32,000 nucleotides of DNA from an uncultured Erysipelotrichaceae bacterium (GCA_942493105.1 OW818668.1:1200001-1232000), one strand, 5' to 3'; positions 3,028-30,541 are shown, numbered from the stretch's first letter. Translations and numbers: made by a program. The notes: generated by a model from the letters alone, not told the origin.

Positions 3028-3033
3028 ATAAAA

Positions 3034-3277
3034 AACGATGAATAGGATATGTGGATTTAAGCACTTCTGTCTAGCGAGTTGGAGATGGTGTAAGCCAACC
3101 TGAACCTTAAATTTGTAACCCCTATGAGTGTTGTGGTGAACTTGAAGTAGCCACTGCCGGGTGTTCCCGTTATAGAACTAGGGTTTGAGTGAACCTGAAA
3201 AAGAGACCTTTTGGTAAACAGGGTGGTACCGCGGAGCACAAACAGCCTTCGTCCCTACGGATAGGCTGTTTTTTTGT
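3034..3277 (+). promoter_or_regulatory. T-box riboswitch leader, Asn (AAC) specifier, with terminator
   Basis: Canonical T-box sequence GGTGGTACCGCG at 3222-3233. Stem I has a GATGA...GAG K-turn base (ATAGG 3042-3046 / CCTAT 3121-3125), ATTTAAG 3055-3061 / CTTAAAT 3106-3112, an AGCGA bulge at 3073-3077 and a GGTG distal loop. AAC (3117-3119) sits at the 3' end of the specifier loop. Terminator AACAGCCT 3241-3248 / AGGCTGTT 3263-3270 followed by a T7 run. Confidence 0.85.
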
Positions 3278-3294
3278 TCTCTGGAGGAAAAACC

Positions 3295-4872
3295 ATGTGT
3301 GGAATCTTGTTTGTAGAAGGACAGGCTGATCTTGATCAATTTAAATCCTCATTTATAAAAATTCAGCATCGCGGACCGGATATGAGCCGTATCTTAAGCA
3401 ATGACTTAGGAACCTTTGGCTTTCATCGCTTAGCGATCATGGATGTCACTGAACATGGGATGCAACCCTTTGTTGATCACGATACCATGGCCGTATGTAA
3501 TGGTGAGATCTACAATGAGAAAGCCATCAAAACGATGTTTCCATCATATCCCTTTCAAGGTCACAGTGACTGTGAAGTTTTGATCCCAATGTATGAAAAG
3601 TTAGGAATCGAGATGTGTCGTGCTTTAGACGCGGAATTCGCATTCGTACTGACAGATTTGAAGCATAAAAAAATCATTGCAGCTCGTGATCCAATTGGGA
3701 TAAGACCTTTGTTTTATGGATATCAAAAAGGATCTCGCAAAATCGCTTTTGCTTCTGAAGCTAAAGCCTTGGTGGACTTATGTGATGAGGTACAGCCATT
3801 TCCGATTGGGTCTGTATACGAGAATGGAAAGTTCATCTTATATCATGACATCACCAAAACAAACACTCAAAAAATAACAGATGAACAACACATCAAAACA
3901 TTGATCAAAGAAAAATTAACTTTAGGTGTTCAAAAAAGAATGATGTCGGATGTGCCTGTAGGCTATCTGTTAAGCGGAGGACTTGATTCTTCACTCGTAT
4001 GTGCTATCGCATCTCGAAGTTCAAATCAAGCCCTAACAACTTTTGCGATTGGGATGCAGGAAGATGCGATCGATTTAAAGTATGCTATGCAAGTAGCCAA
4101 GCACTTAAATACAGATCATCATGAAATCATCATGAGTGTTGATGAAGTCATAACTGCTTTGCCTGAAGTCATACGTATGCTTGAAACTTATGATATCACC
4201 ACCATCAGAGCTTCTTTAGGCATGTATCTGTTATGTAAAGGTATTCGAAAGTGTTCCAACATCAAAGTCTTATTGAGCGGTGAAATCAGTGATGAACTTT
4301 TTGGCTATAAATATACAGACTTTGCCCCAAGTGCCCAAGCCTTTCAAATCGAAAGTGAGAAACGTTTAAGAGAACTCTATCAATATGATGTCTTAAGAGC
4401 TGATCGTTGTATCGCCGCTTGGTCTTTAGAAGCCAGAGTTCCTTTTGGTGATTTAGATTTTGTTTCAACGGTTTTAGCCATCGATCCGCAACTGAAACTT
4501 AATACCCATAAGATGGGAAAGTATTGGTTACGTGCTGCTTTTGAAGAAGGAGATTATCTTCCTGCTTCAATATTATGGCGCGATAAAGCTGCTTTTTCTG
4601 ATGCGGTAGGACATTCAATGGTGGATGCTTTAAAGGCTAAAGCTGAAAGCTTATACAGTGATGAAGATTTTAAACAAGGCTGTTTACGTTACTTAGATTG
4701 TGTTCCTTTATCTAAAGAGGCTTTATGGTATAGAGATCTGTTTGAAAGCTTCTATCCCAATCAGAGTCATTGGTGTTCCGCTTATTGGATGCCTAATCCT
4801 AATTGGGATGGTTGTGCTGTCAGTGATCCTTCTGCCCGTGTCTTAAGCAATTATGGACTAAGCGGGACATAA
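3295..4872 (+). CDS. asnB: Asparagine synthetase B (glutamine-hydrolysing)
   Basis: ORF track 3274..4872. True start is ATG-TGT at 3295 (MCGILF, the Ntn class-II amidotransferase Cys2) after GGAGGA. Contains the SGGLDSS PP-loop motif. Length about 525 aa. Confidence 0.9.
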   Translation: MCGILFVEGQADLDQFKSSFIKIQHRGPDMSRILSNDLGTFGFHRLAIMDVTEHGMQPFVDHDTMAVCNGEIYNEKAIKTMFPSYPFQGHSDCEVLIPMYEKLGIEMCRALDAEFAFVLTDLKHKKIIAARDPIGIRPLFYGYQKGSRKIAFASEAKALVDLCDEVQPFPIGSVYENGKFILYHDITKTNTQKITDEQHIKTLIKEKLTLGVQKRMMSDVPVGYLLSGGLDSSLVCAIASRSSNQALTTFAIGMQEDAIDLKYAMQVAKHLNTDHHEIIMSVDEVITALPEVIRMLETYDITTIRASLGMYLLCKGIRKCSNIKVLLSGEISDELFGYKYTDFAPSAQAFQIESEKRLRELYQYDVLRADRCIAAWSLEARVPFGDLDFVSTVLAIDPQLKLNTHKMGKYWLRAAFEEGDYLPASILWRDKAAFSDAVGHSMVDALKAKAESLYSDEDFKQGCLRYLDCVPLSKEALWYRDLFESFYPNQSHWCSAYWMPNPNWDGCAVSDPSARVLSNYGLSGT

Positions 4873-24601: not shown

Positions 24602-25567
24602 ATGAGCCACCTTCAAAACAGATTGAAACCCATCCAACTTAGATTTTTGACCTTTCTAGTTATCTTCAGCCTTCTTTTAACGGGCTGTGCTTTGTTTCCA
24701 CAGAAATTCAAAGAAGTTGTAAAAGATTATAAGCCAAATCATACGTATTATAAACCTGAACTCATCGTACAAACACTCTCACAGCCTTTGTATGTTAAAG
24801 AAAAAGTTGTTTATCGCGTGGATTCAGAAATGGAATTGGCTGTCTTAGCCATGATCCTTTTTGAAGAAGGCACGTTTCAGATCTATTTCGAAGATCGCGA
24901 TTTTTCAATCGATCGTACTTATGCATATCTAGAATCTTTGATGATTCATGCGTTTAGATTCAGTATGGGAACCAAGACTTATACACAAGGCGATGAAACC
25001 GTTAAAACGTTAGATTATGTCAAAATCGAACTCTATAATGATCGAATGGGCCAAGTCGATACAGCCATTGATACGTTCATTGACAGCAAAATCAATTCAT
25101 CTGATTCACCTGAAAAAATACTAAGAGACATTCATGATGGTTTGATCCTGACCACAAAATATGACACGGCTATTTTAGAGCTGGATTTGACCAATATTGT
25201 AGATCATACGCCGTTTGAAGCCTATGGGCTGTTTGTAGAGCACAAAGCTGTTTGCAGTGGCTACGCCAAAGCATTTGTGGGAGTTGCCAAAGAGATGAAC
25301 ATTCCTGTTTTGACAGTATCCAGTACTAAAATGAATCATGCGTGGAATTTGGTCTATGTCAATGATGCATGGCTCTATATCGATGTCACCTTTGATGACC
25401 CAGTCCCTGATAAAGCAGGACGAGTTGTAGACACTTACTTCTTATTGACCTACAACAAGATCACCAAAGCCTCTTTTACGATCAAAGCCCATGAGTTTGA
25501 CGTGGCCTCTGAGACGACCTTGACTGCAGACCAATATTTAGAATTTGCCCAATATGTTTTCAACTAA
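24602..25567 (+). CDS. Transglutaminase-like (Cys-His-Asp) lipoprotein
   Basis: ORF track 24560..25567. I prefer ATG 24602 (MSHLQNRLKPIQLRFLTFLVIFSLLLTGC, lipobox LTGC). The core HKAVCSGYAKAF...NHAWNLVY...YIDVTFDD matches the transglutaminase-like cysteine-protease fold. Confidence 0.75.
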   Translation: MSHLQNRLKPIQLRFLTFLVIFSLLLTGCALFPQKFKEVVKDYKPNHTYYKPELIVQTLSQPLYVKEKVVYRVDSEMELAVLAMILFEEGTFQIYFEDRDFSIDRTYAYLESLMIHAFRFSMGTKTYTQGDETVKTLDYVKIELYNDRMGQVDTAIDTFIDSKINSSDSPEKILRDIHDGLILTTKYDTAILELDLTNIVDHTPFEAYGLFVEHKAVCSGYAKAFVGVAKEMNIPVLTVSSTKMNHAWNLVYVNDAWLYIDVTFDDPVPDKAGRVVDTYFLLTYNKITKASFTIKAHEFDVASETTLTADQYLEFAQYVFN

Positions 25568-25622
25568 AAATAGCTTAGTGTACAATTTAAACCAAATAGT
25601 GACAAAATTTAAATCTAACGAC

Positions 25623-25650
25623 TTGTATTTTGGCAACAATAGATTACAAT
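25623..25650 (+). promoter_or_regulatory. Putative promoter of the leader / ankyrin / EF-G-paralog operon
   Basis: TTGTAT (25623-25628), 16-nt spacer, TACAAT (25645-25650). Confidence 0.4.
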
Positions 25651-25684
25651 GAAAGTAACGAACAAAGAACAGTGAGGTATCAGG

Positions 25685-25777
25685 ATGAGCAGAAGTTTTC
25701 TTGTCCAATTTGAGACACCAATTGTAACAGAGACACCTGTCTTTGTTGTCGTGAATAAGACTAAATTTGCCTTTTAA
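25685..25777 (+). CDS. 30-codon leader ORF (putative regulatory leader peptide)
   Basis: GAGG (25674-25677) lies 7 nt before ATG 25685. Peptide MSRSFLVQFETPIVTETPVFVVVNKTKFAF*. The TAA (25775-25777) overlaps the first bases of the terminator stem. Confidence 0.5.
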   Translation: MSRSFLVQFETPIVTETPVFVVVNKTKFAF

Positions 25778-25810
25778 GATGGACTTAACACGTTCATCTT
25801 TTTTATTGTT
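25776..25810 (+). terminator. Intrinsic terminator acting as an attenuator in the 5' leader of the ankyrin/EF-G-paralog operon
   Basis: AAGATGGAC (25776-25784) / GTTCATCTT (25792-25800): 9 bp including one G-U, with a 7-nt loop, followed by TTTTATTGTTT. Located 20 nt upstream of the AGGAGGA SD of the ankyrin gene. Confidence 0.65.
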
Positions 25811-25829
25811 TGAACACAGGAGGACAACA

Positions 25830-26498
25830 ATGGATCAAACAAATCAAGTATTCTGGGAAGCTGCTGCGGCTGGAGATCTCTCTAAGGTCGTATTGGCAGT
25901 CAACCAAGGCGCTGACGTCAATGTCAGAAATGCTGAAGCTCGTACCGCATTGATGAGAAGTTCTAAACGAGGTTTTGAGAAAGTCGTTCGTTATCTCATC
26001 GACAATGGTGCCGATGTGAATGCGAAAGACAACAATGGGAAGACCGCTTTGATGGGTGCTGCTAAAAAAGGGCACATCGATATCGCCAAGATGTTGATTG
26101 ATTCAGGAGCCGATGTGAATGTCGCTGATAATAAAGGCAAAACTGCCTTGATCAGAGCCAGTTTCTTAGGTCAATTGGATGTGGTAGAACTCTTGATCAA
26201 GTCTAGAGTCAATGTGAATGCACAAGATGATATGGGTAGAACCCCTTTGATGGAAGCATGCAATGCCTTCAAATTCGATGTGATCAAAGCTTTATTGGCA
26301 GCAGGAGCCAATATCAATGCCGTGGATGATAATGGATGTACAGCCTTGATGAGAGCAGCCTATATCGGTTATACCGAAATGGTGCAATACCTCTTGGATC
26401 ATGGCGCAGACAAAGAAGTGATCGATAAAGGCGGCAATAAAGCCGTGCATTATGTTAGAACCGAATGTTTGGCTGAACTTAAGCCTTTACTTAAATAG
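25830..26498 (+). CDS. Ankyrin-repeat protein (six 33-aa ANK repeats plus a C-terminal cap), cytoplasmic
   Basis: ORF track 25767..26498. ATG 25830 lies 5 nt after AGGAGGA. Six tandem units of the form xTALMxAxxxGxxxxVxxLIxxGADVNAxDxxG. No signal peptide or TM segment. Confidence 0.9.
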   Translation: MDQTNQVFWEAAAAGDLSKVVLAVNQGADVNVRNAEARTALMRSSKRGFEKVVRYLIDNGADVNAKDNNGKTALMGAAKKGHIDIAKMLIDSGADVNVADNKGKTALIRASFLGQLDVVELLIKSRVNVNAQDDMGRTPLMEACNAFKFDVIKALLAAGANINAVDDNGCTALMRAAYIGYTEMVQYLLDHGADKEVIDKGGNKAVHYVRTECLAELKPLLK

Positions 26499-26512
26499 GA
26501 GCCCCAATCACC

Positions 26513-28594
26513 ATGAAAGATTATGCAGCCTTAGATATACGTAACATTGTCTTACTGGGTCATTCCGGTGTAGGAAAGACCCAAATCGTAGAAAGTATGC
26601 TGTATTTTACGAAAGTGACCGATCGTATGGGGAAGACCATCGATGGGAATTCTGTCATAGATTTTGATCAGGATGAAATTAAAAAAGGATTATCGATTTA
26701 TACAGGATTAGCCCCGATCGAATGGAAAGATCACAAGATCAATTTCATCGATACCCCAGGCTACTTTGATTATGCTCAGGAACAAGAAGCAGGCTTAGCG
26801 GTTGCAGACAATGCCTTGATCGTCGTCAGTGCCAAAGATGGGATCCAAACCGGAACCATCAGAGCTTGGAAATCGGTCAGTAAACGTAAGTTGCCTACGA
26901 TCTTCTTCATCAATAAGATCGATGAAGAAAATACATCATTTGATAAAGTGTATGCTCAACTCAGAGACCAATTTGGAAAGTCTGTCATACCTTTTGAAAT
27001 GCCCATCATTGAGAATGGTAAAGTCGTTGGATCCATCAATATCTTAAAGAATAAAGCCTGGTACTTAAAAGACAGAAATACCCCACAAGAAGTCCCTGCA
27101 GCTTTAAAAGCTCAAGTCGATGATTACCTCAATCAGATCTCAGAAGCTGTTGCGATGACATCTGATGAGTTGATGGAGAAGTTTTTCTCAGGGGAACCTT
27201 TTCAAGAAGCACAATTGATCCAAGGCGTTAGAGCTGGGGTCAGATCAGGTGATATTCGTCCTGTGTATTGTGGCTCCGCAACCCAACAGATCGGTATTGA
27301 GCGCTTATTGGATCTGATTGGAGAATATTTCCCGTCTTATGGTGAAAAAGGGCTTATTGAAGCTAAAAATCTTAGAGGTGAAGTGGTTAAATTACGTACC
27401 GATGAAAGTGAATCATTCAGTGCTTTGGTTTATAAGACCATCATTGACCCCTTCGTAGGTCGTATTTCCTATATTAAGGTCATGACTGGGGTTTTGAATT
27501 CAGATTCGGTGGTTCAAAATGTACGTGAAGAAAAACCTGAAAAGATTGCCCAAGTCTTTATCGTCAAAGGCAAGAATCAAATCGCTGTCGGTAAGTTGTT
27601 TACTGGAGATTTAGGCTGTGTCGTCAAACTTCAAGTGACACGCACCAATGATACTTTGGCCATCAAAGGCAAAGAAGTGGTCTATGATCACATCATCTTC
27701 CCAGAAGGTTTGTTGGCGATGAGCATCTTCCCAAAATCCAAACTCGATGAAGATAAACTCAGTTCTTCCTTACAACGCATTGAAGAAGAAGATCCTTCAT
27801 GCAAAGTCGTTAAAAACCCTGAAACCCATGAAATGGTCTTATATGGATTAGGGGATCAACATTTGGATGTCATCGTCAGTAAGCTTCGAAACAAATATAA
27901 AGTCGATGTTGAACTCAGAGAACCACGGATCCCTTATCGTGAAACCATTCGCGGAACTGTTACCGTAGAAGGCAAACATAAGAAACAATCTGGTGGTGCT
28001 GGTCAATTCGGAGATGTCTTCATTACCTTTGAACCCTGTGATTCAATTGAAATGGTCTTTGAAGAAAAAGTATTCGGAGGCGCTGTACCTCGTCAATATT
28101 TCCCAGCCGTAGAAGCTGGTCTTAGAGAAGCCATGGTCAAAGGCGTTTTGGCCGGTTATAAAGTCGTTGGGGTCAAAGCCACTTTGGTGGATGGGAAGTA
28201 TCATGAAGTCGACTCCAAAGAAATCGCGTTTAAAATGGCAGCCCGTTTGGCGTATAAAGCAGGTATGCCCTTGGCTAAACCTGTCCTACTAGAACCTGTC
28301 GTTAAAGTTGCGGTCACCATCCCAGATGAATTTACGGGAGCCGTCATCGGTGATTTCAATAAACGCAGAGGCATCATCTTAGGTATGGAACCCAATGAAG
28401 ATGGCGATCAAGTCGTCTTGGCTGAAGCACCGATGAGTGAAATGATGCGTTATTCAACGGAATTGAGATCATTTACTCAAGGCCGTGGTGTTTATACTCA
28501 AAAATTTGATCGATATGAATTTGCCCCACAGCCTATTGCTGAAAAAGTCATCGCAAATTCTGCCAAAGATCACGAAGAAGAAGAATTGGAATAA
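26513..28594 (+). CDS. EF-G-like translational GTPase paralog (non-canonical G motifs; not in an str-operon context)
   Basis: 693 aa. G1 GHSGVGKT, G3 DTPGY (Tyr at the catalytic His position), G4 NKID, G5 CGSA. Domain IV loops HKKQSGGAGQFGDV and YHEVDSKEIAFKMAA are EF-G-like. Starts 14 nt after the ankyrin gene, with a GGAG overlapping its stop. Confidence 0.9.
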   Translation: MKDYAALDIRNIVLLGHSGVGKTQIVESMLYFTKVTDRMGKTIDGNSVIDFDQDEIKKGLSIYTGLAPIEWKDHKINFIDTPGYFDYAQEQEAGLAVADNALIVVSAKDGIQTGTIRAWKSVSKRKLPTIFFINKIDEENTSFDKVYAQLRDQFGKSVIPFEMPIIENGKVVGSINILKNKAWYLKDRNTPQEVPAALKAQVDDYLNQISEAVAMTSDELMEKFFSGEPFQEAQLIQGVRAGVRSGDIRPVYCGSATQQIGIERLLDLIGEYFPSYGEKGLIEAKNLRGEVVKLRTDESESFSALVYKTIIDPFVGRISYIKVMTGVLNSDSVVQNVREEKPEKIAQVFIVKGKNQIAVGKLFTGDLGCVVKLQVTRTNDTLAIKGKEVVYDHIIFPEGLLAMSIFPKSKLDEDKLSSSLQRIEEEDPSCKVVKNPETHEMVLYGLGDQHLDVIVSKLRNKYKVDVELREPRIPYRETIRGTVTVEGKHKKQSGGAGQFGDVFITFEPCDSIEMVFEEKVFGGAVPRQYFPAVEAGLREAMVKGVLAGYKVVGVKATLVDGKYHEVDSKEIAFKMAARLAYKAGMPLAKPVLLEPVVKVAVTIPDEFTGAVIGDFNKRRGIILGMEPNEDGDQVVLAEAPMSEMMRYSTELRSFTQGRGVYTQKFDRYEFAPQPIAEKVIANSAKDHEEEELE

Positions 28595-28599
28595 GCTTC

Positions 28600-28625
28600 A
28601 AGGCACAATCTTGTGCCTTTTTTTA
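28600..28625 (+). terminator. Intrinsic terminator after the EF-G paralog
   Basis: AAGGCACA (28600-28607) / TGTGCCTT (28612-28619) with loop ATCT, followed by a T-run. Confidence 0.85.
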
Positions 28626-28697
28626 TGACTTGATATGCTTTGTTGGCTTAGAAGGGTTCTTATTTATGCTTGAGTGATTTTGAAGTATAATGAGTAT

Positions 28698-29630
28698 ATG
28701 AGTAAAATCGTTGTATTGGGTGGTGTCAGTGTTGATTTAGTAGGGGTATCTTATGATCCTTTGCGTATGCAAGATTCTAATCCTGGATCAGTATCCTTGT
28801 CTTTTGGTGGAGTTGGAAGAAACATTGCGGAAAACTGTGCCCATTATGGAGCTGAAGTACAACTGATCAGTGTATTTGGAGATGATCACTTAGGTCATCT
28901 GTGTTATAAAGATTGCGTAGAAAGTGGTATAAAAGTCGACCACAGTATTTTTAAGGACCAAACTTCTTCGATGTATCTAGCGATACTGGATCCTAGTGGT
29001 GATCTGGCTTTAGGGGTATCTGATAATTCGATCTTATCATGCTTAAATTATGATTCAATCAAGAGTGCTTTATCGATGATATCTACTCAAGATATCCTTG
29101 TCTTAGAAACCAATTTAGAAAAAGAACTGATCGACATGGTTTTGACACATAAGTCCTGTATGATCGCATGTGATCCGATCTCTACTCATAAAGCAGAGAA
29201 ACTGATCGATCATTTAGGTCAGATCGATATCTTTAAACCCAACGATTTGGAAGCTGCGGTCTATTTTGGATCAGTGCTCACTTCAGATGAAGATTTCCTA
29301 GAAGCTTTACGTTTCTTTAGAAACAAAGGCATCCAAGAAATCATCATCAGTGCTGCTGAAAAAGGGATCTATGTTTCTAAAGGTGAGTCGTATTTTCATT
29401 TATTGACTCCCAGTGTCAAACTCGTCAATGCGACAGGGGCAGGAGATGCCTTCATGGGAGCCTATCTAGTCATGCGTCAGCGCTATGATTTCCAAAGGGC
29501 ACTGGAACTGGCATGTTGTGCCTCACTGCTGACCTTGGAGTCACAAAGGACTGTCCTAAAGGATTTAAGCTTAGAAAGCATCATAACTAAACATGAACGA
29601 AGTATCTTCGTAAGGAAAGACCTATGTTAA
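28698..29630 (+). CDS. psuK: Pseudouridine kinase (PfkB family)
   Basis: ORF track 28674..29630. I prefer ATG 28698 (MSKIVVLGGVSVDL...). Contains GGVGRNIA and a C-terminal GAGDAF motif. Overlaps and precedes psuG. Confidence 0.8.
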   Translation: MSKIVVLGGVSVDLVGVSYDPLRMQDSNPGSVSLSFGGVGRNIAENCAHYGAEVQLISVFGDDHLGHLCYKDCVESGIKVDHSIFKDQTSSMYLAILDPSGDLALGVSDNSILSCLNYDSIKSALSMISTQDILVLETNLEKELIDMVLTHKSCMIACDPISTHKAEKLIDHLGQIDIFKPNDLEAAVYFGSVLTSDEDFLEALRFFRNKGIQEIIISAAEKGIYVSKGESYFHLLTPSVKLVNATGAGDAFMGAYLVMRQRYDFQRALELACCASLLTLESQRTVLKDLSLESIITKHERSIFVRKDLC

Positions 29631-30541
29631 AAATCAATCAAGAAGTAAAGGAAGCATTAAGACAAGGCAAGGCCGTGGTGGCTTTAGAATCAACGATCAT
29701 TTCTCATGGAATGCCTTATCCACAGAATGTTCAAACAGCTCTTGAAGTAGAAGCTGAAATCAGAGCCCATGGGGCAATACCGGCAACCATTGGGATCATT
29801 GATGGGATCATGGTCGTAGGGATGAGTCCTGATGAGATAGAAGCCTTTGGGAAGCGTCATGACATCGTTAAAGTATCAAGGCGTGATTTACCCATGGTCA
29901 TTGCGAATAAGGCGTGGGGAGCCACCACAGTGGCTTCAACCATGATCATAGCGGCTTTGGCGAAGATCGAAGTCTTTGTGACAGGTGGAATCGGCGGAGT
30001 TCACAGAGGTGCTCAAAATTCTTTTGATATTTCTGCAGATCTTCAAGAATTGGCGCATACCAACGTTACCGTGGTCTGTGCAGGAGCCAAAGCCATCTTG
30101 GATCTGCCTTTGACGATGGAATATCTGGAAACCTTTGGGGTTCCTGTCTTAGGTTATCAAAGCGATGAACTGGCAGCTTTCTATACCCCTAAATCAAACT
30201 TAAGAGTCGACCAAAGAGTCAATACAGCCCAAGAAATCGCTCGAATCATTCAAGTTAAACGTGAATTGAAATTAGACGGAGGGGTCTTGATCAGTAATCC
30301 GATCCCAAAAGAATATGCGATGGATGAACAGATCATAACCAAAGCCATTGATCAAGCGCTCAAAGAAAGTCATCAAGAAAACATCAGCGGGAAAGATGTG
30401 ACCCCTTACTTATTAGCCAAAGTCAAAGCATTGACTGGTGGTGATTCACTTGAATCCAATATTGCCTTAATCAAGAATAATGCGTTGGTTGGAGCACAAA
30501 TCGCTGTTGCCTTAAGCAAAGGAGTACAAGATGTACGATAA
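29624..30541 (+). CDS. psuG: Pseudouridine-5'-phosphate glycosidase
   Basis: ...VVALESTIISHGMPYPQN...TGGIGGVHRGA...DISADL...VVCAGAKAILD..., characteristic of the PsuG/IndA family. 305 aa. Confidence 0.9.
   Translation: MLKINQEVKEALRQGKAVVALESTIISHGMPYPQNVQTALEVEAEIRAHGAIPATIGIIDGIMVVGMSPDEIEAFGKRHDIVKVSRRDLPMVIANKAWGATTVASTMIIAALAKIEVFVTGGIGGVHRGAQNSFDISADLQELAHTNVTVVCAGAKAILDLPLTMEYLETFGVPVLGYQSDELAAFYTPKSNLRVDQRVNTAQEIARIIQVKRELKLDGGVLISNPIPKEYAMDEQIITKAIDQALKESHQENISGKDVTPYLLAKVKALTGGDSLESNIALIKNNALVGAQIAVALSKGVQDVR

Follow-up and report, generated by a model that had tools for sequence, protein, structure and literature searches.

Results

The window, by which we mean the whole stretch of 32,000 nucleotides analysed here, carries on its forward strand an open reading frame (26513..28594) for a protein of 693 amino acids with five EF-G domains, referred to below as EF-G2. 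The frame begins with ATG behind a GGAG Shine-Dalgarno sequence (26498-26501) and is preceded on the same strand by a gene for an ankyrin-repeat protein (25830..26498; 222 aa, six repeats) with a Shine-Dalgarno sequence, AGGAGG, at 25818-25823. A promoter-like element, a short leader ORF and a terminator-like hairpin, all on the forward strand, lie ahead of the two genes, and an intrinsic terminator of the form AAGGCACA-ATCT-TGTGCCTT followed by TTTTT (28600..28626, forward strand) closes the presumed operon. Other neighbours encode a transglutaminase-like protein, peptidases, a PfkB kinase, an Indigoidine_A-family protein and PgpA. The EF-G2 gene lies outside the str operon (rpsL-rpsG-fusA-tuf); rpsL, rpsG and tuf were not found among the window ORFs scanned, which covered about 1-10 kb and 18.8-31 kb.

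Pfam recognizes GTP_EFTU, EF-G_D2, EFG_III, EFG_IV and EFG_C in the EF-G2 frame, all above their gathering scores and corresponding to domains G with G', II, III, IV and V. The NCBIfam model NF009381 reaches 867 bits (cut-off 583), whereas the canonical EF-G equivalog TIGR00484 stays below its own (616.0 against 659.4 bits). At the signature positions of types I and II defined by Margus et al. 2011 (16, 25, 61, 291, 333, 352, 216, 250, 264, 471, 472, 513 and 603 in 1WDT numbering), compared on the verified 1WDT sequence, 11 of 13 residues are identical in the window protein, the two mismatches being Ile for Leu at position 25 and Ser for Asp at position 216 (217 in the window protein). From these results, together with the G1, G2 and loop I features given below, the predicted protein is a member of the already described EFG II / EF-G2 subfamily. 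Three other identities were considered and rejected: canonical EF-G (EFG I, fusA), since the His of DxPGH is absent (Tyr84), TIGR00484 falls short and the gene is not in the str operon; the Bacteroides-type EF-G2, whose model NF058620 reaches only 560 bits against a cut-off of 1000 and whose domain IV insertion is lacking; and a Tet(M)/Tet(O) ribosomal protection protein, for which NF012153 gives 309 bits against 775 and from which loops I and II differ in following the EF-G pattern. Members of EFG II are expected always to share their genome with another, canonical EF-G. The window EF-G2 is ~40% identical to canonical EF-Gs, and the gene most likely encodes a second elongation factor G kept alongside the canonical fusA product. 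Its full-length homologues have an intact frame and a near-constant length of 670-697 aa in more than 80 species.

The nucleotide-binding motifs are all intact in the translation (G1, Ser61 in G2, DxxG, NKxD and SA). G1 reads GHSGVGKT (26558..26581, aa 16-23), with Gly16 in place of Ala and Ser18-Gly19 in place of Ile-Asp; switch I/G2 reads KKGLSI (26681..26698, aa 57-62), with Ser61 for the Mg-coordinating Thr and Lys58 for Arg; and G3/switch II reads DTPGY (26750..26764, aa 80-84), in which Tyr84 (TAC, 26762-26764) takes the position of the catalytic His. G4 is NKID (26912-26923, aa 134-137) and G5 is GSA (27272-27280, aa 254-256). In domain IV, loop I, HKKQSGGAGQFGDV (27977..28018, aa 489-502), holds the Lys-Lys pair typical of EFG II, positions 471/472 of the published numbering (PMC3150367), and loop II is YHEVDS (28199..28216, aa 563-568) with His564; all of these lie on the forward strand. 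The published patterns for EFG II are GhxxxGKT in G1 and, for the Clostridia type, RxxSI in G2 (PMC3150367). Across 150 representatives, which stand for EF-G2 clusters at 50% identity, the Gly that replaces the Ala of AHIDAGKT is present in 120, and the switch I column holds Ser in 119 and Thr in 30. Most close relatives have KRGxSV, and Firmicute EF-G2 proteins as a group show the least diverged switch I, (K/R)GxS(I/V). Both tip loops are more constant still: the loop I pattern KKQ[ST]GG.GQ[YF]G is nearly invariant, the loop II His is found in 149/150 and its Val-Asp-Ser in 147-149/150. A first-pass annotation of this DNA had proposed an EF-G paralogue frame, had named each of these motifs and had called the domain IV tip loops EF-G-like and not Tet(M)-like; frame, motifs and loops were all recovered at the same positions, and the low NF012153 score agrees with the last point.

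Phmmer alignments to the S. aureus and T. thermophilus EF-Gs contain no gap between residue 4 and a point past residue 106, and in both Tyr84 pairs with the His of DTPGH, which confirms the equivalence proposed in the first-pass annotation. The only other histidines near the nucleotide pocket are His17 and His74. The former is the P-loop residue, also His in canonical AHIDAGKT, and the latter is His in T. thermophilus EF-G as well ('kdhrin'). Since both are matched in canonical EF-G sequences, neither offers an alternative for the catalytic position, and a nearby substitute is ruled out by the gap-free alignment. The 120 database homologues closest to the window protein (66-93% identity) read DTPGY in 117 cases and DTPGF in two. 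Over the 150 representatives the column holds Tyr in 72, Phe in 33, Asp in 10, Leu in 8 and His in 5, so that Tyr, Phe and Leu together make up 113/150; Asn, Ser and Thr also occur. Loci from species-representative genomes and four assembly contigs gave 80 usable sequences, none with His at this position, and 48 of the 49 readable ankyrin-linked EF-G2 sequences have Tyr. The three solved EF-G2 proteins lack the His too (Thermus DAPGY, Mycobacterium DTPGY, Bacteroides DCPGS). Judged by these comparisons, Tyr84 is neither a sequencing accident nor a lone mutation, and the column counts indicate that the loss of the His is family-wide in EF-G2 and under selection. What had been presented as special to the window gene is in fact the rule in EFG II / EF-G2.

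The ankyrin-repeat gene gives Pfam matches to Ank_2, Ank_4 and Ank. A mechanical ORF call from TTG at 25767 is too long, as orthologues start with MDQTN. In 49/49 Erysipelotrichaceae genome loci and in loci L001-L004, EF-G2 is preceded at a distance of 8-24 nt by an orthologue (52-89% identity), and the pair is kept while the flanking genes vary between genomes. The reverse linkage holds too: in a metagenome locus scan, 10/10 ankyrin orthologues were followed by EF-G2. This result was taken from that scan and not from a homologue search with the ankyrin protein, in which generic multi-repeat ankyrins crowded out the true orthologues. Many of these Erysipelotrichaceae stem from gut and rumen samples. 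The ankyrin protein is 222-225 aa long with 43 invariant positions in 42 sequences, and NCBIfam has no specific family for the 222-aa protein. Clostridial EF-G2 loci with upstream sequence available lack the gene. A search for an EF-G2 binding patch, in the form of residues fixed in the ankyrin-linked clade and different in clostridial EF-G2, returned six scattered positions confounded by phylogeny. A defence-system reading was dropped, as PADLOC gave no match for EF-G2 and generic ankyrin matches only for the partner.

The promoter-like element (25623..25650, forward strand) was read from the sequence and consists of TTGTAT (25623-25628), a 16-nt spacer and TACAAT (25645-25650). A consensus scan did not list it because its -35 hexamer matches at only 3/6 positions, yet 33/33 related loci have a TTGnnn-N16-18-TAnnnT element whose end lies 20-51 nt ahead of the leader ATG, compared with 12% of shuffles, and we infer that the operon promoter lies here. 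The leader ORF (25685..25777, forward strand) has 30 codons, MSRSFLVQFETPIVTETPVFVVVNKTKFAF, a GAGG Shine-Dalgarno sequence at 25674-25677 and a TAA stop (25775-25777) that overlaps the first bases of the terminator stem. That stem belongs to an intrinsic-terminator-like hairpin, AAGATGGAC...GTTCATCTT with a T-run (25776..25806, forward strand), 23 nt upstream of the ankyrin start, which we read as a putative transcription attenuator. A leader was counted in related loci where an ORF of at least 18 codons with a Shine-Dalgarno sequence and ATG ended between -14 and +12 nt from the attenuator stem; 38 of 46 loci have one, where shuffles would give 1.1, and its length across related loci is 20-36 codons. 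Eight loci failed these strict criteria, and in some lineages the terminator could be leaky and the leader ORF incidental. In 17 of the 38, the leader stop precedes the stem by exactly 1 nt, which would place a terminating and not an elongating ribosome on the terminator arm. The hairpin and T-run are present in nearly all ankyrin-linked loci, and among 42 loci there are 33 different 5' arms, each with a matching 3' arm, which amounts to compensatory variation. This conservation was scored from per-sequence folds, as MAFFT with RNAalifold misregistered the stems and recovered only 5 pairs. No antiterminator was detected: even the best pairing that the 100 nt upstream offer to the 5' arm of the terminator was no better than that of shuffles (mean z +0.4, 34 loci). 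Rfam gave no family for the leader in the window, in 25500-25900 at E up to 10, or in 12 related loci, and a T-box or known riboswitch was rejected on this ground. On inspection of clostridial EF-G2 loci, no comparable leader or terminator was evident.

Discussion

The alignments support the window protein as a non-canonical EF-G paralogue, in which the canonical activation of the GTPase through the His and the sarcin-ricin loop cannot, with a Tyr predicted in its place, operate as it does in EF-G. The first-pass annotation had proposed a protein that binds GTP and reaches into the decoding centre, with a GTPase that may be impaired. The intact motifs and tip loops agree with binding and reach, but the Tyr alone does not predict loss of the GTPase, since T. 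thermophilus EF-G-2, with the same Tyr, is reported as a GTPase that is active with and without the ribosome and that sustains poly(Phe) synthesis (PMC3150367). [quoted passage not shown] B. thetaiotaomicron EF-G2, which has Ser for the His, is described as translocating without GTP hydrolysis (PMC12775393); it has little or no ribosome-stimulated GTPase activity and is induced by carbon limitation. With the published EF-G2 biochemistry split in this way, impaired GTPase activity is plausible for the window EF-G2 but not inferable from Tyr84. The P-loop His is also lost in the two GTPase-inactive relatives (GPSGGGKT, GSSGSGKT) and is kept in the window EF-G2; as Thermus EF-G-2 shares both the Tyr and the P-loop His and is reported to be active, the hydrolysis-impaired part of the earlier proposal may be wrong for the window clade. 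Han et al. 2023 reportedly traced the missing GTPase activity of Bacteroides EF-G2 to an insertion of 26 residues in domain IV. The window EF-G2 lacks this insertion and stays colinear with canonical EF-G up to and including domain IV. A blocker, sensor or rescue factor had moreover been preferred over a translocase, and this preference is unwarranted, because Bacteroides EF-G2 is described as translocating and the domain IV loops are near-invariant, which argues for EF-G-type work in the A site and decoding centre.

Our best reading is that the window EF-G2 is an auxiliary factor for translocation that is expressed under certain conditions and has a partner of its own. Taken as a whole, namely as a functional second EF-G of the EFG II type that docks on the ribosome and is encoded in a leader/terminator-controlled operon with a dedicated ankyrin partner, we consider this account reasonably probable. 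The operon would run from the promoter through the leader ORF, whose stop abuts the terminator, to the ankyrin gene, EF-G2 as the second cistron and the closing terminator. As antiterminator RNA pairing was undetectable, the ribosome is the proposed mask: when on the last codons or the stop of the leader, it would by itself cover the 5' arm of the terminator, and expression of the pair would depend on ribosome movement or termination on the leader relative to RNA polymerase, in either direction. EF-G2 would bind GTP and occupy the ribosome in the manner of EF-G, placing domain IV in the A site, and from such docking it would be expected to act on the tRNA-mRNA complex, either through slow or single-round translocation or by stabilizing the post-translocation state. 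The canonical His trigger being impossible, GTP hydrolysis would be very slow or would proceed by other chemistry. Their invariant linkage suggests that the ankyrin protein most likely serves EF-G2 as a dedicated partner, which might for example control the binding of EF-G2 to the ribosome or its release.

There is a small but real chance that EF-G2 is instead a fully GTPase-competent alternative translocase, tuned to some condition, in which another group activates the water. This is what Thermus EF-G-2 appears to be, as it combines GHAGSGKT and DAPGY with reported GTP hydrolysis, a higher intrinsic activity and poly(Phe) synthesis (PMC3150367), and the window protein resembles it in having the P-loop His and no Bacteroides insertion, within a Firmicute group whose switch I is the least diverged. 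The residue at position 84 is moreover mostly aromatic or hydrophobic across the family, as in HAS-GTPases, which according to Mishra et al. 2005 are said to carry a hydrophobic residue at the catalytic position. However, the same exchange in M. smegmatis EF-G1 (H88Y) nearly abolishes GTPase activity, the P-loop has Ser-Gly instead of the Ile-Asp that touches the sarcin-ricin loop, and Asp, Asn, Ser or Thr stand at the catalytic position in other members, so that no single replacement chemistry is conserved. It is rather unlikely, in our judgement, that the His-less EF-G2 works only with its ankyrin partner, the two forming a self-regulating back-up module for translocation and recycling. The ankyrin protein would in that case work in trans on EF-G2 that is bound to the ribosome: it would complete the active site in the manner of a GAP, or pry EF-G2 off the ribosome and so replace GTP hydrolysis; the leader would report the speed of termination and recycling, which amounts to canonical EF-G activity, and the back-up system would thereby regulate itself.

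We are similarly doubtful that EF-G2 is a ribosome brake that holds non-rotated post-translocation ribosomes under stress, neither translocating nor recycling, with the ankyrin protein loading or removing it. The M. smegmatis EF-G2 that is reported to trap such ribosomes has the same DTPGY, and the 'blocker' of the first-pass annotation would fit; yet that protein is far more diverged in G1, G2 and G4 than the window protein, the near-invariance of both decoding-centre loops is not obviously needed by a mere blocker, and Bacteroides EF-G2 does translocate. An inducible module for antibiotic tolerance or ribosome protection is improbable. Here the leader and terminator would sense drug-stalled ribosomes, and EF-G2 and the ankyrin protein would replace or protect inhibited EF-G or ribosomes (e.g. 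with fusidic acid or argyrin-type drugs). The conserved leader-peptide attenuator architecture invites this explanation, since leaders of this kind typically precede resistance genes whose products work on the ribosome, among them ABC-F genes and the gene for Tet(M), an EF-G homologue; Su, He and Clewell 1992 reportedly described the leader-peptide attenuator of tet(M) (Tn916). FusB/FusC are furthermore a precedent for a small EF-G-binding partner. Nevertheless, the pair belongs to the vertically inherited core of an entire bacterial family and sits in ordinary chromosomal surroundings without mobile-element genes close by, the domain IV loops are of the EF-G type with the ribosomal-protection model far below its cut-off, and the literature searched gave no link to a drug. 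A decaying or neutral duplicate, with a drifted catalytic residue and a meaningless inherited synteny, is strongly disfavoured: EFG II does evolve fast in domains I-III (PMC3150367) and residue 84 varies across the wider family, but the frame is intact at a steady length in all those species, the nucleotide-binding motifs, the domain IV loops and the Tyr of the ankyrin-linked sequences are nearly fixed, the pair keeps its 8-24-nt spacing, shared promoter, leader and terminator despite changing flanks, and the ankyrin orthologues of the metagenome loci never occur without EF-G2.

The relatives of the window protein behave in three ways, as an active translocase (Thermus), a slow translocase free of hydrolysis (Bacteroides) and a ribosome trap (Mycobacterium). 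A translational GTPase without the His is already part of the known EF-G2 story, to which the window gene adds one member. What appears to be new is the invariant two-gene ankyrin/EF-G2 operon behind a leader peptide and terminator in Erysipelotrichaceae. It provides two handles that the studied EF-G2 systems lack, an ankyrin protein as candidate partner and a cis-element that should reveal the translational state that switches EF-G2 on. Should the partner replace GTP hydrolysis in releasing or activating EF-G2, this would be a new way to run a translational GTPase; should it not, the locus is a well-conserved but ordinary EF-G2 locus.

Compared with EFG II as described (PMC3150367; NF009381), the window protein shares the five domains, GhxxxGKT with Gly16, the Ser in G2 with loss of RGITI, DxPG, NKxD, SA, the Lys-Lys pair of loop I and a location outside the str operon, and it belongs to the 'Clostridia-like', least diverged branch. 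The 2011 description gives G3 only as DxPG, leaves the missing His uncommented and includes neither an ankyrin partner nor a leader peptide (PMC3150367). Thermus thermophilus EF-G-2 (PDB 1WDT / 2DY1), 36% identical over the full length, shares the P-loop His (GHAGSGKT for GHSGVGKT), the Tyr (DAPGY for DTPGY), the KKQ.GG.GQ.G of loop I, the YHEVDS of loop II and the lack of a domain IV insertion; it differs in its 665 aa with deletions, its switch I (HRTTV) and TKLD in place of NKID, and no report of an ankyrin partner was found for it. Bacteroides thetaiotaomicron EF-G2 (fusA2, BT2167; PDB 7UVP / 8DMF), described as a starvation-induced, slow translocator independent of GTP hydrolysis, is likewise a paralogue without the catalytic His (DCPGS) and is colinear with the window EF-G2 in the G domain (residues 1-510 against 1-509). 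In contrast to the window protein, it has the 26-residue domain IV insertion (after residue 509 in 7UVP), GSSGSGKT without His in the P-loop, YGYSV in switch I and Ser in place of Tyr, and it is controlled by the transcription factor BT4338/Cur and not by a leader-peptide attenuator. Mycobacterium smegmatis EF-G2 (PDB 9K0Z / 9K10), a non-essential, stress-linked second EF-G, shares DTPGY, its Tyr98 in place of His88 being explicitly described, but is much more diverged (GPSGGGKT, switch I QQRSV, TKLD) and is reported as a ribosome trap without translocation or recycling.

The two elements that set the locus apart have looser counterparts. FusB/FusC are small proteins dedicated to EF-G that modulate its residence on the ribosome and have a zinc-binding two-domain fold; the likeness to the ankyrin protein is one of concept, as the two have no sequence or fold relationship and binding of the ankyrin protein to EF-G2 is hypothetical. 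The tet(M)- and pyrBI-type attenuators share with the leader a short ORF with a Shine-Dalgarno sequence that overlaps an intrinsic terminator ahead of structural genes, and differ in their unrelated peptide sequences and in the stop lying 1 nt before the stem, as it does in 17/38 loci here. In attenuation of the pyrBI type the ribosome masks the terminator itself and a separate antiterminator helix is unneeded, and the window leader, having no detectable antiterminator pairing, is compatible with this subtype.

Results

The EF-G2 gene (26513-28594, + strand) has an ATG start codon with a GGAG 11 nt upstream; its product has 693 residues, in which all five EF-G domains are detected with Pfam. 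The first-pass annotation had described it as an EF-G paralogue without the catalytic histidine of the PGH motif, and we find that the ORF is real and that every motif named there lies where it had been placed. In the translation, G1 is GHSGVGKT (residues 16-23), switch I is KKGLSI (57-62), G3 is DTPGY (80-84, with Tyr84 encoded by the TAC at 26762-26764), G4 is NKID (134-137) and G5 is GSA (254-256), while loops I and II of domain IV are HKKQSGGAGQFGDV (489-502) and YHEVDS (563-568), respectively. Alignment to the EF-G of S. aureus and T. thermophilus runs without gaps from residue 4 to past residue 106 and sets Tyr84 opposite the His of DTPGH, which confirms the proposed His-to-Tyr equivalence. 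We also looked for a nearby histidine that could fill the catalytic site instead; the other histidines close to the pocket, His17 and His74, both have histidine counterparts in canonical EF-G, and therefore neither is a substitute. Nor is the protein Tet(M)-like, since it scores 309 bits with the ribosomal-protection model, below the cut-off of 775.

The protein belongs to the EFG II subfamily, defined by Margus, Remm and Tenson in 2011 (PMC3150367). It scores 867 bits with the NCBIfam subfamily model NF009381 (cut-off 583), and 616 with the canonical EF-G equivalog TIGR00484, under the cut-off of 659.4. In EFG II, G1 reads GhxxxGKT with Gly16, RGITI is relaxed to xxxSx with Ser replacing Thr, DxPG, NKxD and SA are kept, and a Lys-Lys pair in domain IV loop I is a further trait (PMC3150367); the protein carries these defining features in G1, G2, the kept motifs and the Lys-Lys pair. 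Aligned to the verified full 1WDT sequence, it is identical to this reference at 11 of 13 EFG II signature positions, the remaining two being a conservative Ile25 for Leu and a different residue, Ser217, for Asp216. Judged by its neighbours in the window, the gene is not located in a str operon: it is surrounded by genes for an ankyrin protein, a transglutaminase-like protein, M3 and M20 peptidases, a PfkB kinase, an Indigoidine_A-family (PsuG-like) protein and PgpA, with ordinary housekeeping genes farther away.

As a rule, the catalytic His is missing throughout the EFG II family. How widespread DTPGY is had been raised in the first-pass annotation; DTPGY stands in 117 of the 120 database proteins closest to this one (66-93% identity), and DTPGF in two. 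HMMER was run exhaustively against 1.84 billion cluster representatives, and in the best 150 (34-59% identical to the window protein) residue 84 is Tyr in 72, Phe in 33, Asp in 10 and Leu in 8, and less commonly Asn, His and Ser (5 each) and Thr (4). No His occurs at this position in the 80 usable sequences from loci of species-representative Erysipelotrichaceae and Clostridia genomes plus four assembly contigs. It is absent, too, from all three EF-G2 proteins of solved structure, namely T. thermophilus EF-G-2 (GHAGSGKT, DAPGY), M. smegmatis EF-G2 (9K0Z; GPSGGGKT, DTPGY) and B. thetaiotaomicron EF-G2 (7UVP; GSSGSGKT, EYGYSV, DCPGS). The 2011 paper makes no comment on the position (PMC3150367); for M. 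smegmatis the swap is explicitly described, Tyr98 standing for His88, and H88Y in EF-G1 nearly abolishes GTPase activity (bioRxiv 10.64898/2026.05.25.727771). The missing His is known biology and the gene one more EFG II member. The nucleotide-binding motifs and the domain IV tip are under strong constraint: among the best 150 representatives, Lys490 occurs in 140, Lys491 in 138, Gln492 and Gly494 in 150, His564 in 149 and Val-Asp-Ser 566-568 in 147-149.

Directly upstream, 14 nt from its stop codon to the EF-G2 start codon, lies a gene for a 222-residue ankyrin-repeat protein (25830-26498, + strand; Pfam Ank_2, Ank_4 and Ank). Its ATG at 25830 was set by orthologues, which together with an AGGAGG at 25818-25823 rule out the TTG at 25767 that a mechanical ORF call had given and that overlaps the attenuator hairpin. 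The linkage of the two genes is invariant. An ankyrin orthologue (52-89% identical) stands 8-24 nt upstream of EF-G2 in 49 of 49 Erysipelotrichaceae loci of the genome collection, in genera including Holdemania, Solobacterium, Amedibacillus, Faecalicoccus, Holdemanella, Absicoccus, Allobaculum, Longicatena, Erysipelothrix and Merdibacter, and the pair is present in all four assembly contigs as well, one of which has the Anaerorhabdus furcosa protein. Holdemania filiformis, Amedibacillus dolichus and Faecalicoccus acidiformans are cultured carriers of the operon. When metagenomes were scanned with the ankyrin sequence, 10 orthologues (73-89% identity) were returned, each with EF-G2 downstream; none of the next-best ankyrins (≤46% identical) has such a neighbour, and no ankyrin gene was found at those clostridial EF-G2 loci (46-53% identity) that include upstream sequence. 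The flanking genes vary among genomes and the pair is retained; the ankyrin protein is nearly fixed in length (222-225 residues), with 43 invariant positions in 42 sequences. For the uncultured Erysipelotrichaceae of the window, the closest genome match is the MAG 'Loclat_bin-03787' (EF-G2 92%, ankyrin protein 89% identity).

A contig labelled Segatella copri (CAVKAP010000022.1, locus L037) has an ank-EF-G2 operon typical of Erysipelotrichaceae (58% and 55% identity) and probably entered its assembly as a binning contaminant. On the 3' side of EF-G2, PfkB-family kinase and Indigoidine_A-family genes (28674-30541), resembling a pseudouridine kinase/glycosidase pair, separate it from pgpA; pgpA adjoins EF-G2 in contig L001 and the kinase alone intervenes in L003 and L004, so this stretch is variable beside the conserved pair. 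Several Solobacterium-like relatives have an 84-nt long-arm tRNA gene on the same strand about 100 nt downstream of EF-G2 (L016 7146-7229, L020 7178-7261, L033 7174-7257).

Within 262 nt upstream of the ankyrin gene, sequence reading of the + strand reveals a promoter-like TTGTAT-16-TACAAT (25623-25650), a Shine-Dalgarno GAGG, a 30-codon leader ORF (MSRSFLVQFETPIVTETPVFVVVNKTKFAF; 25685-25777) and a terminator-like hairpin with a T-run (25776-25806) that begins inside the leader TAA stop; the ankyrin start, with its own AGGAGG, follows 23 nt later. Since a strong terminator (28600-28626, + strand) closes the operon 3' of EF-G2, the unit comprises promoter, leader, attenuator, ank, efg2 and terminator. 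Both leader ORF and terminator are conserved. Of 46 loci, 38 have a leader ORF (Shine-Dalgarno plus ATG, at least 18 codons) that ends between -14 and +12 nt of the stem, where 1.1 would be expected, and in 17 its stop lies exactly 1 nt 5' of the stem; the promoter-like element occurs 20-51 nt 5' of the leader ATG in 33/33 loci versus 12% of shuffles. The hairpin with T-run is found in nearly all ankyrin-linked loci, and 42 loci have 33 different 5' arms, each matched by its 3' arm. The leader peptides vary, and many have a (V/L)-F-(G)-G-V-like stretch about 9-15 residues from the C-terminus; in these peptides Phe is last. The leader region matches no Rfam family, no comparable leader or terminator was seen at the clostridial EF-G2 loci inspected, and the terminator 5' arm pairs with no upstream segment above chance.

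Between the T-run of the attenuator and the Shine-Dalgarno of the ankyrin gene is a TTTGA motif, often GTTTGA (window 25810-25815). It occurs at -21 to -36 in 25 of 46 related loci, against a background of 7%, and in Holdemania it stays beside the ribosome-binding site although the terminator is 256 nt upstream. In the minimum-free-energy fold of the window's leader, a 9-bp hairpin, UAACAGAGA CACC UGUCUUUGUU, forms inside the leader ORF (25726-25747). A rumen/gut Erysipelotrichaceae subclade (L043, L044, L047, L048, L049) has a shorter EF-G2 of 670 residues (51-53% identity, a deletion of about 20 residues) in which DTPGY is kept; neither the ankyrin partner nor the attenuator has been lost there. 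Elsewhere in the window, a T-box leader (3029-3259, + strand; RF00230, 101 bits, above the Rfam gathering score) precedes an asparagine-synthase-like gene (ORF 3274-4872; Asn_synthase and GATase domains).

Discussion

In the literature searched, no EF-G2 is described with an ankyrin partner or a leader-peptide attenuator. The simplest reading of the leader is ribosome-mediated attenuation, in which a ribosome on the last codons or stop would mask the terminator arm; ank-efg2 expression is then likely to respond to the behaviour of the ribosome on the leader. The ankyrin protein is a plausible candidate partner that would bind EF-G2 and modulate its cycle on the ribosome.

His-less EF-G2 proteins show three different behaviors. 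Thermus EF-G-2 binds and hydrolyzes GTP, with a higher intrinsic activity. M. smegmatis EF-G2 binds nucleotide, has minimal ribosome-dependent GTPase activity, does not recycle ribosomes and is said to trap them post-translocation in stress. Carbon limitation induces Bacteroides EF-G2, which is required for gut colonization (PMC6989115) and which, according to a citation in PMC12775393, translocates without GTP hydrolysis. Whether hydrolysis by the window protein is absent, slow or by an alternative route cannot be read from its sequence. A fully active translocase like that of Thermus is the rival that survives best, favored by the P-loop and domain IV features that the two proteins share. 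The first-pass annotation had instead preferred a blocker, sensor or rescue factor; the mycobacterial case keeps alive a ribosome brake of this type as a rival, but neither the conserved decoding-centre loops nor the Bacteroides and Thermus data support that preference. A further rival is that the operon is an inducible drug-tolerance module. A neutral duplicate is strongly disfavored by the conservation. The P-loop His is lost in both EF-G2 proteins reported without ribosome-stimulated GTPase (Mycobacterium and Bacteroides), whereas Thermus EF-G-2, which is GTPase-active, keeps it, as do the window protein and 126 of the 150 family representatives; this is a correlation of three data points only.

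We favor a role in which EF-G2 likely binds GTP and the ribosome as EF-G does and acts on the tRNA-mRNA complex, with hydrolysis uncoupled from the canonical His mechanism. Comparison of the P-loop, switch I and domain IV with Thermus, Bacteroides and other EF-G2 proteins gives good grounds to infer that the protein binds GTP and docks like EF-G, placing domain IV in the A site. Its switch I, KKGLSI, is the least diverged of all EF-G2 compared, most relatives having KRGxSV. The P-loop Ile-Asp is lost here as in the other EF-G2 proteins. The 26-residue domain IV insertion of Bacteroides EF-G2 is absent from the window protein, which in this respect, and in keeping the P-loop His, resembles Thermus EF-G-2.
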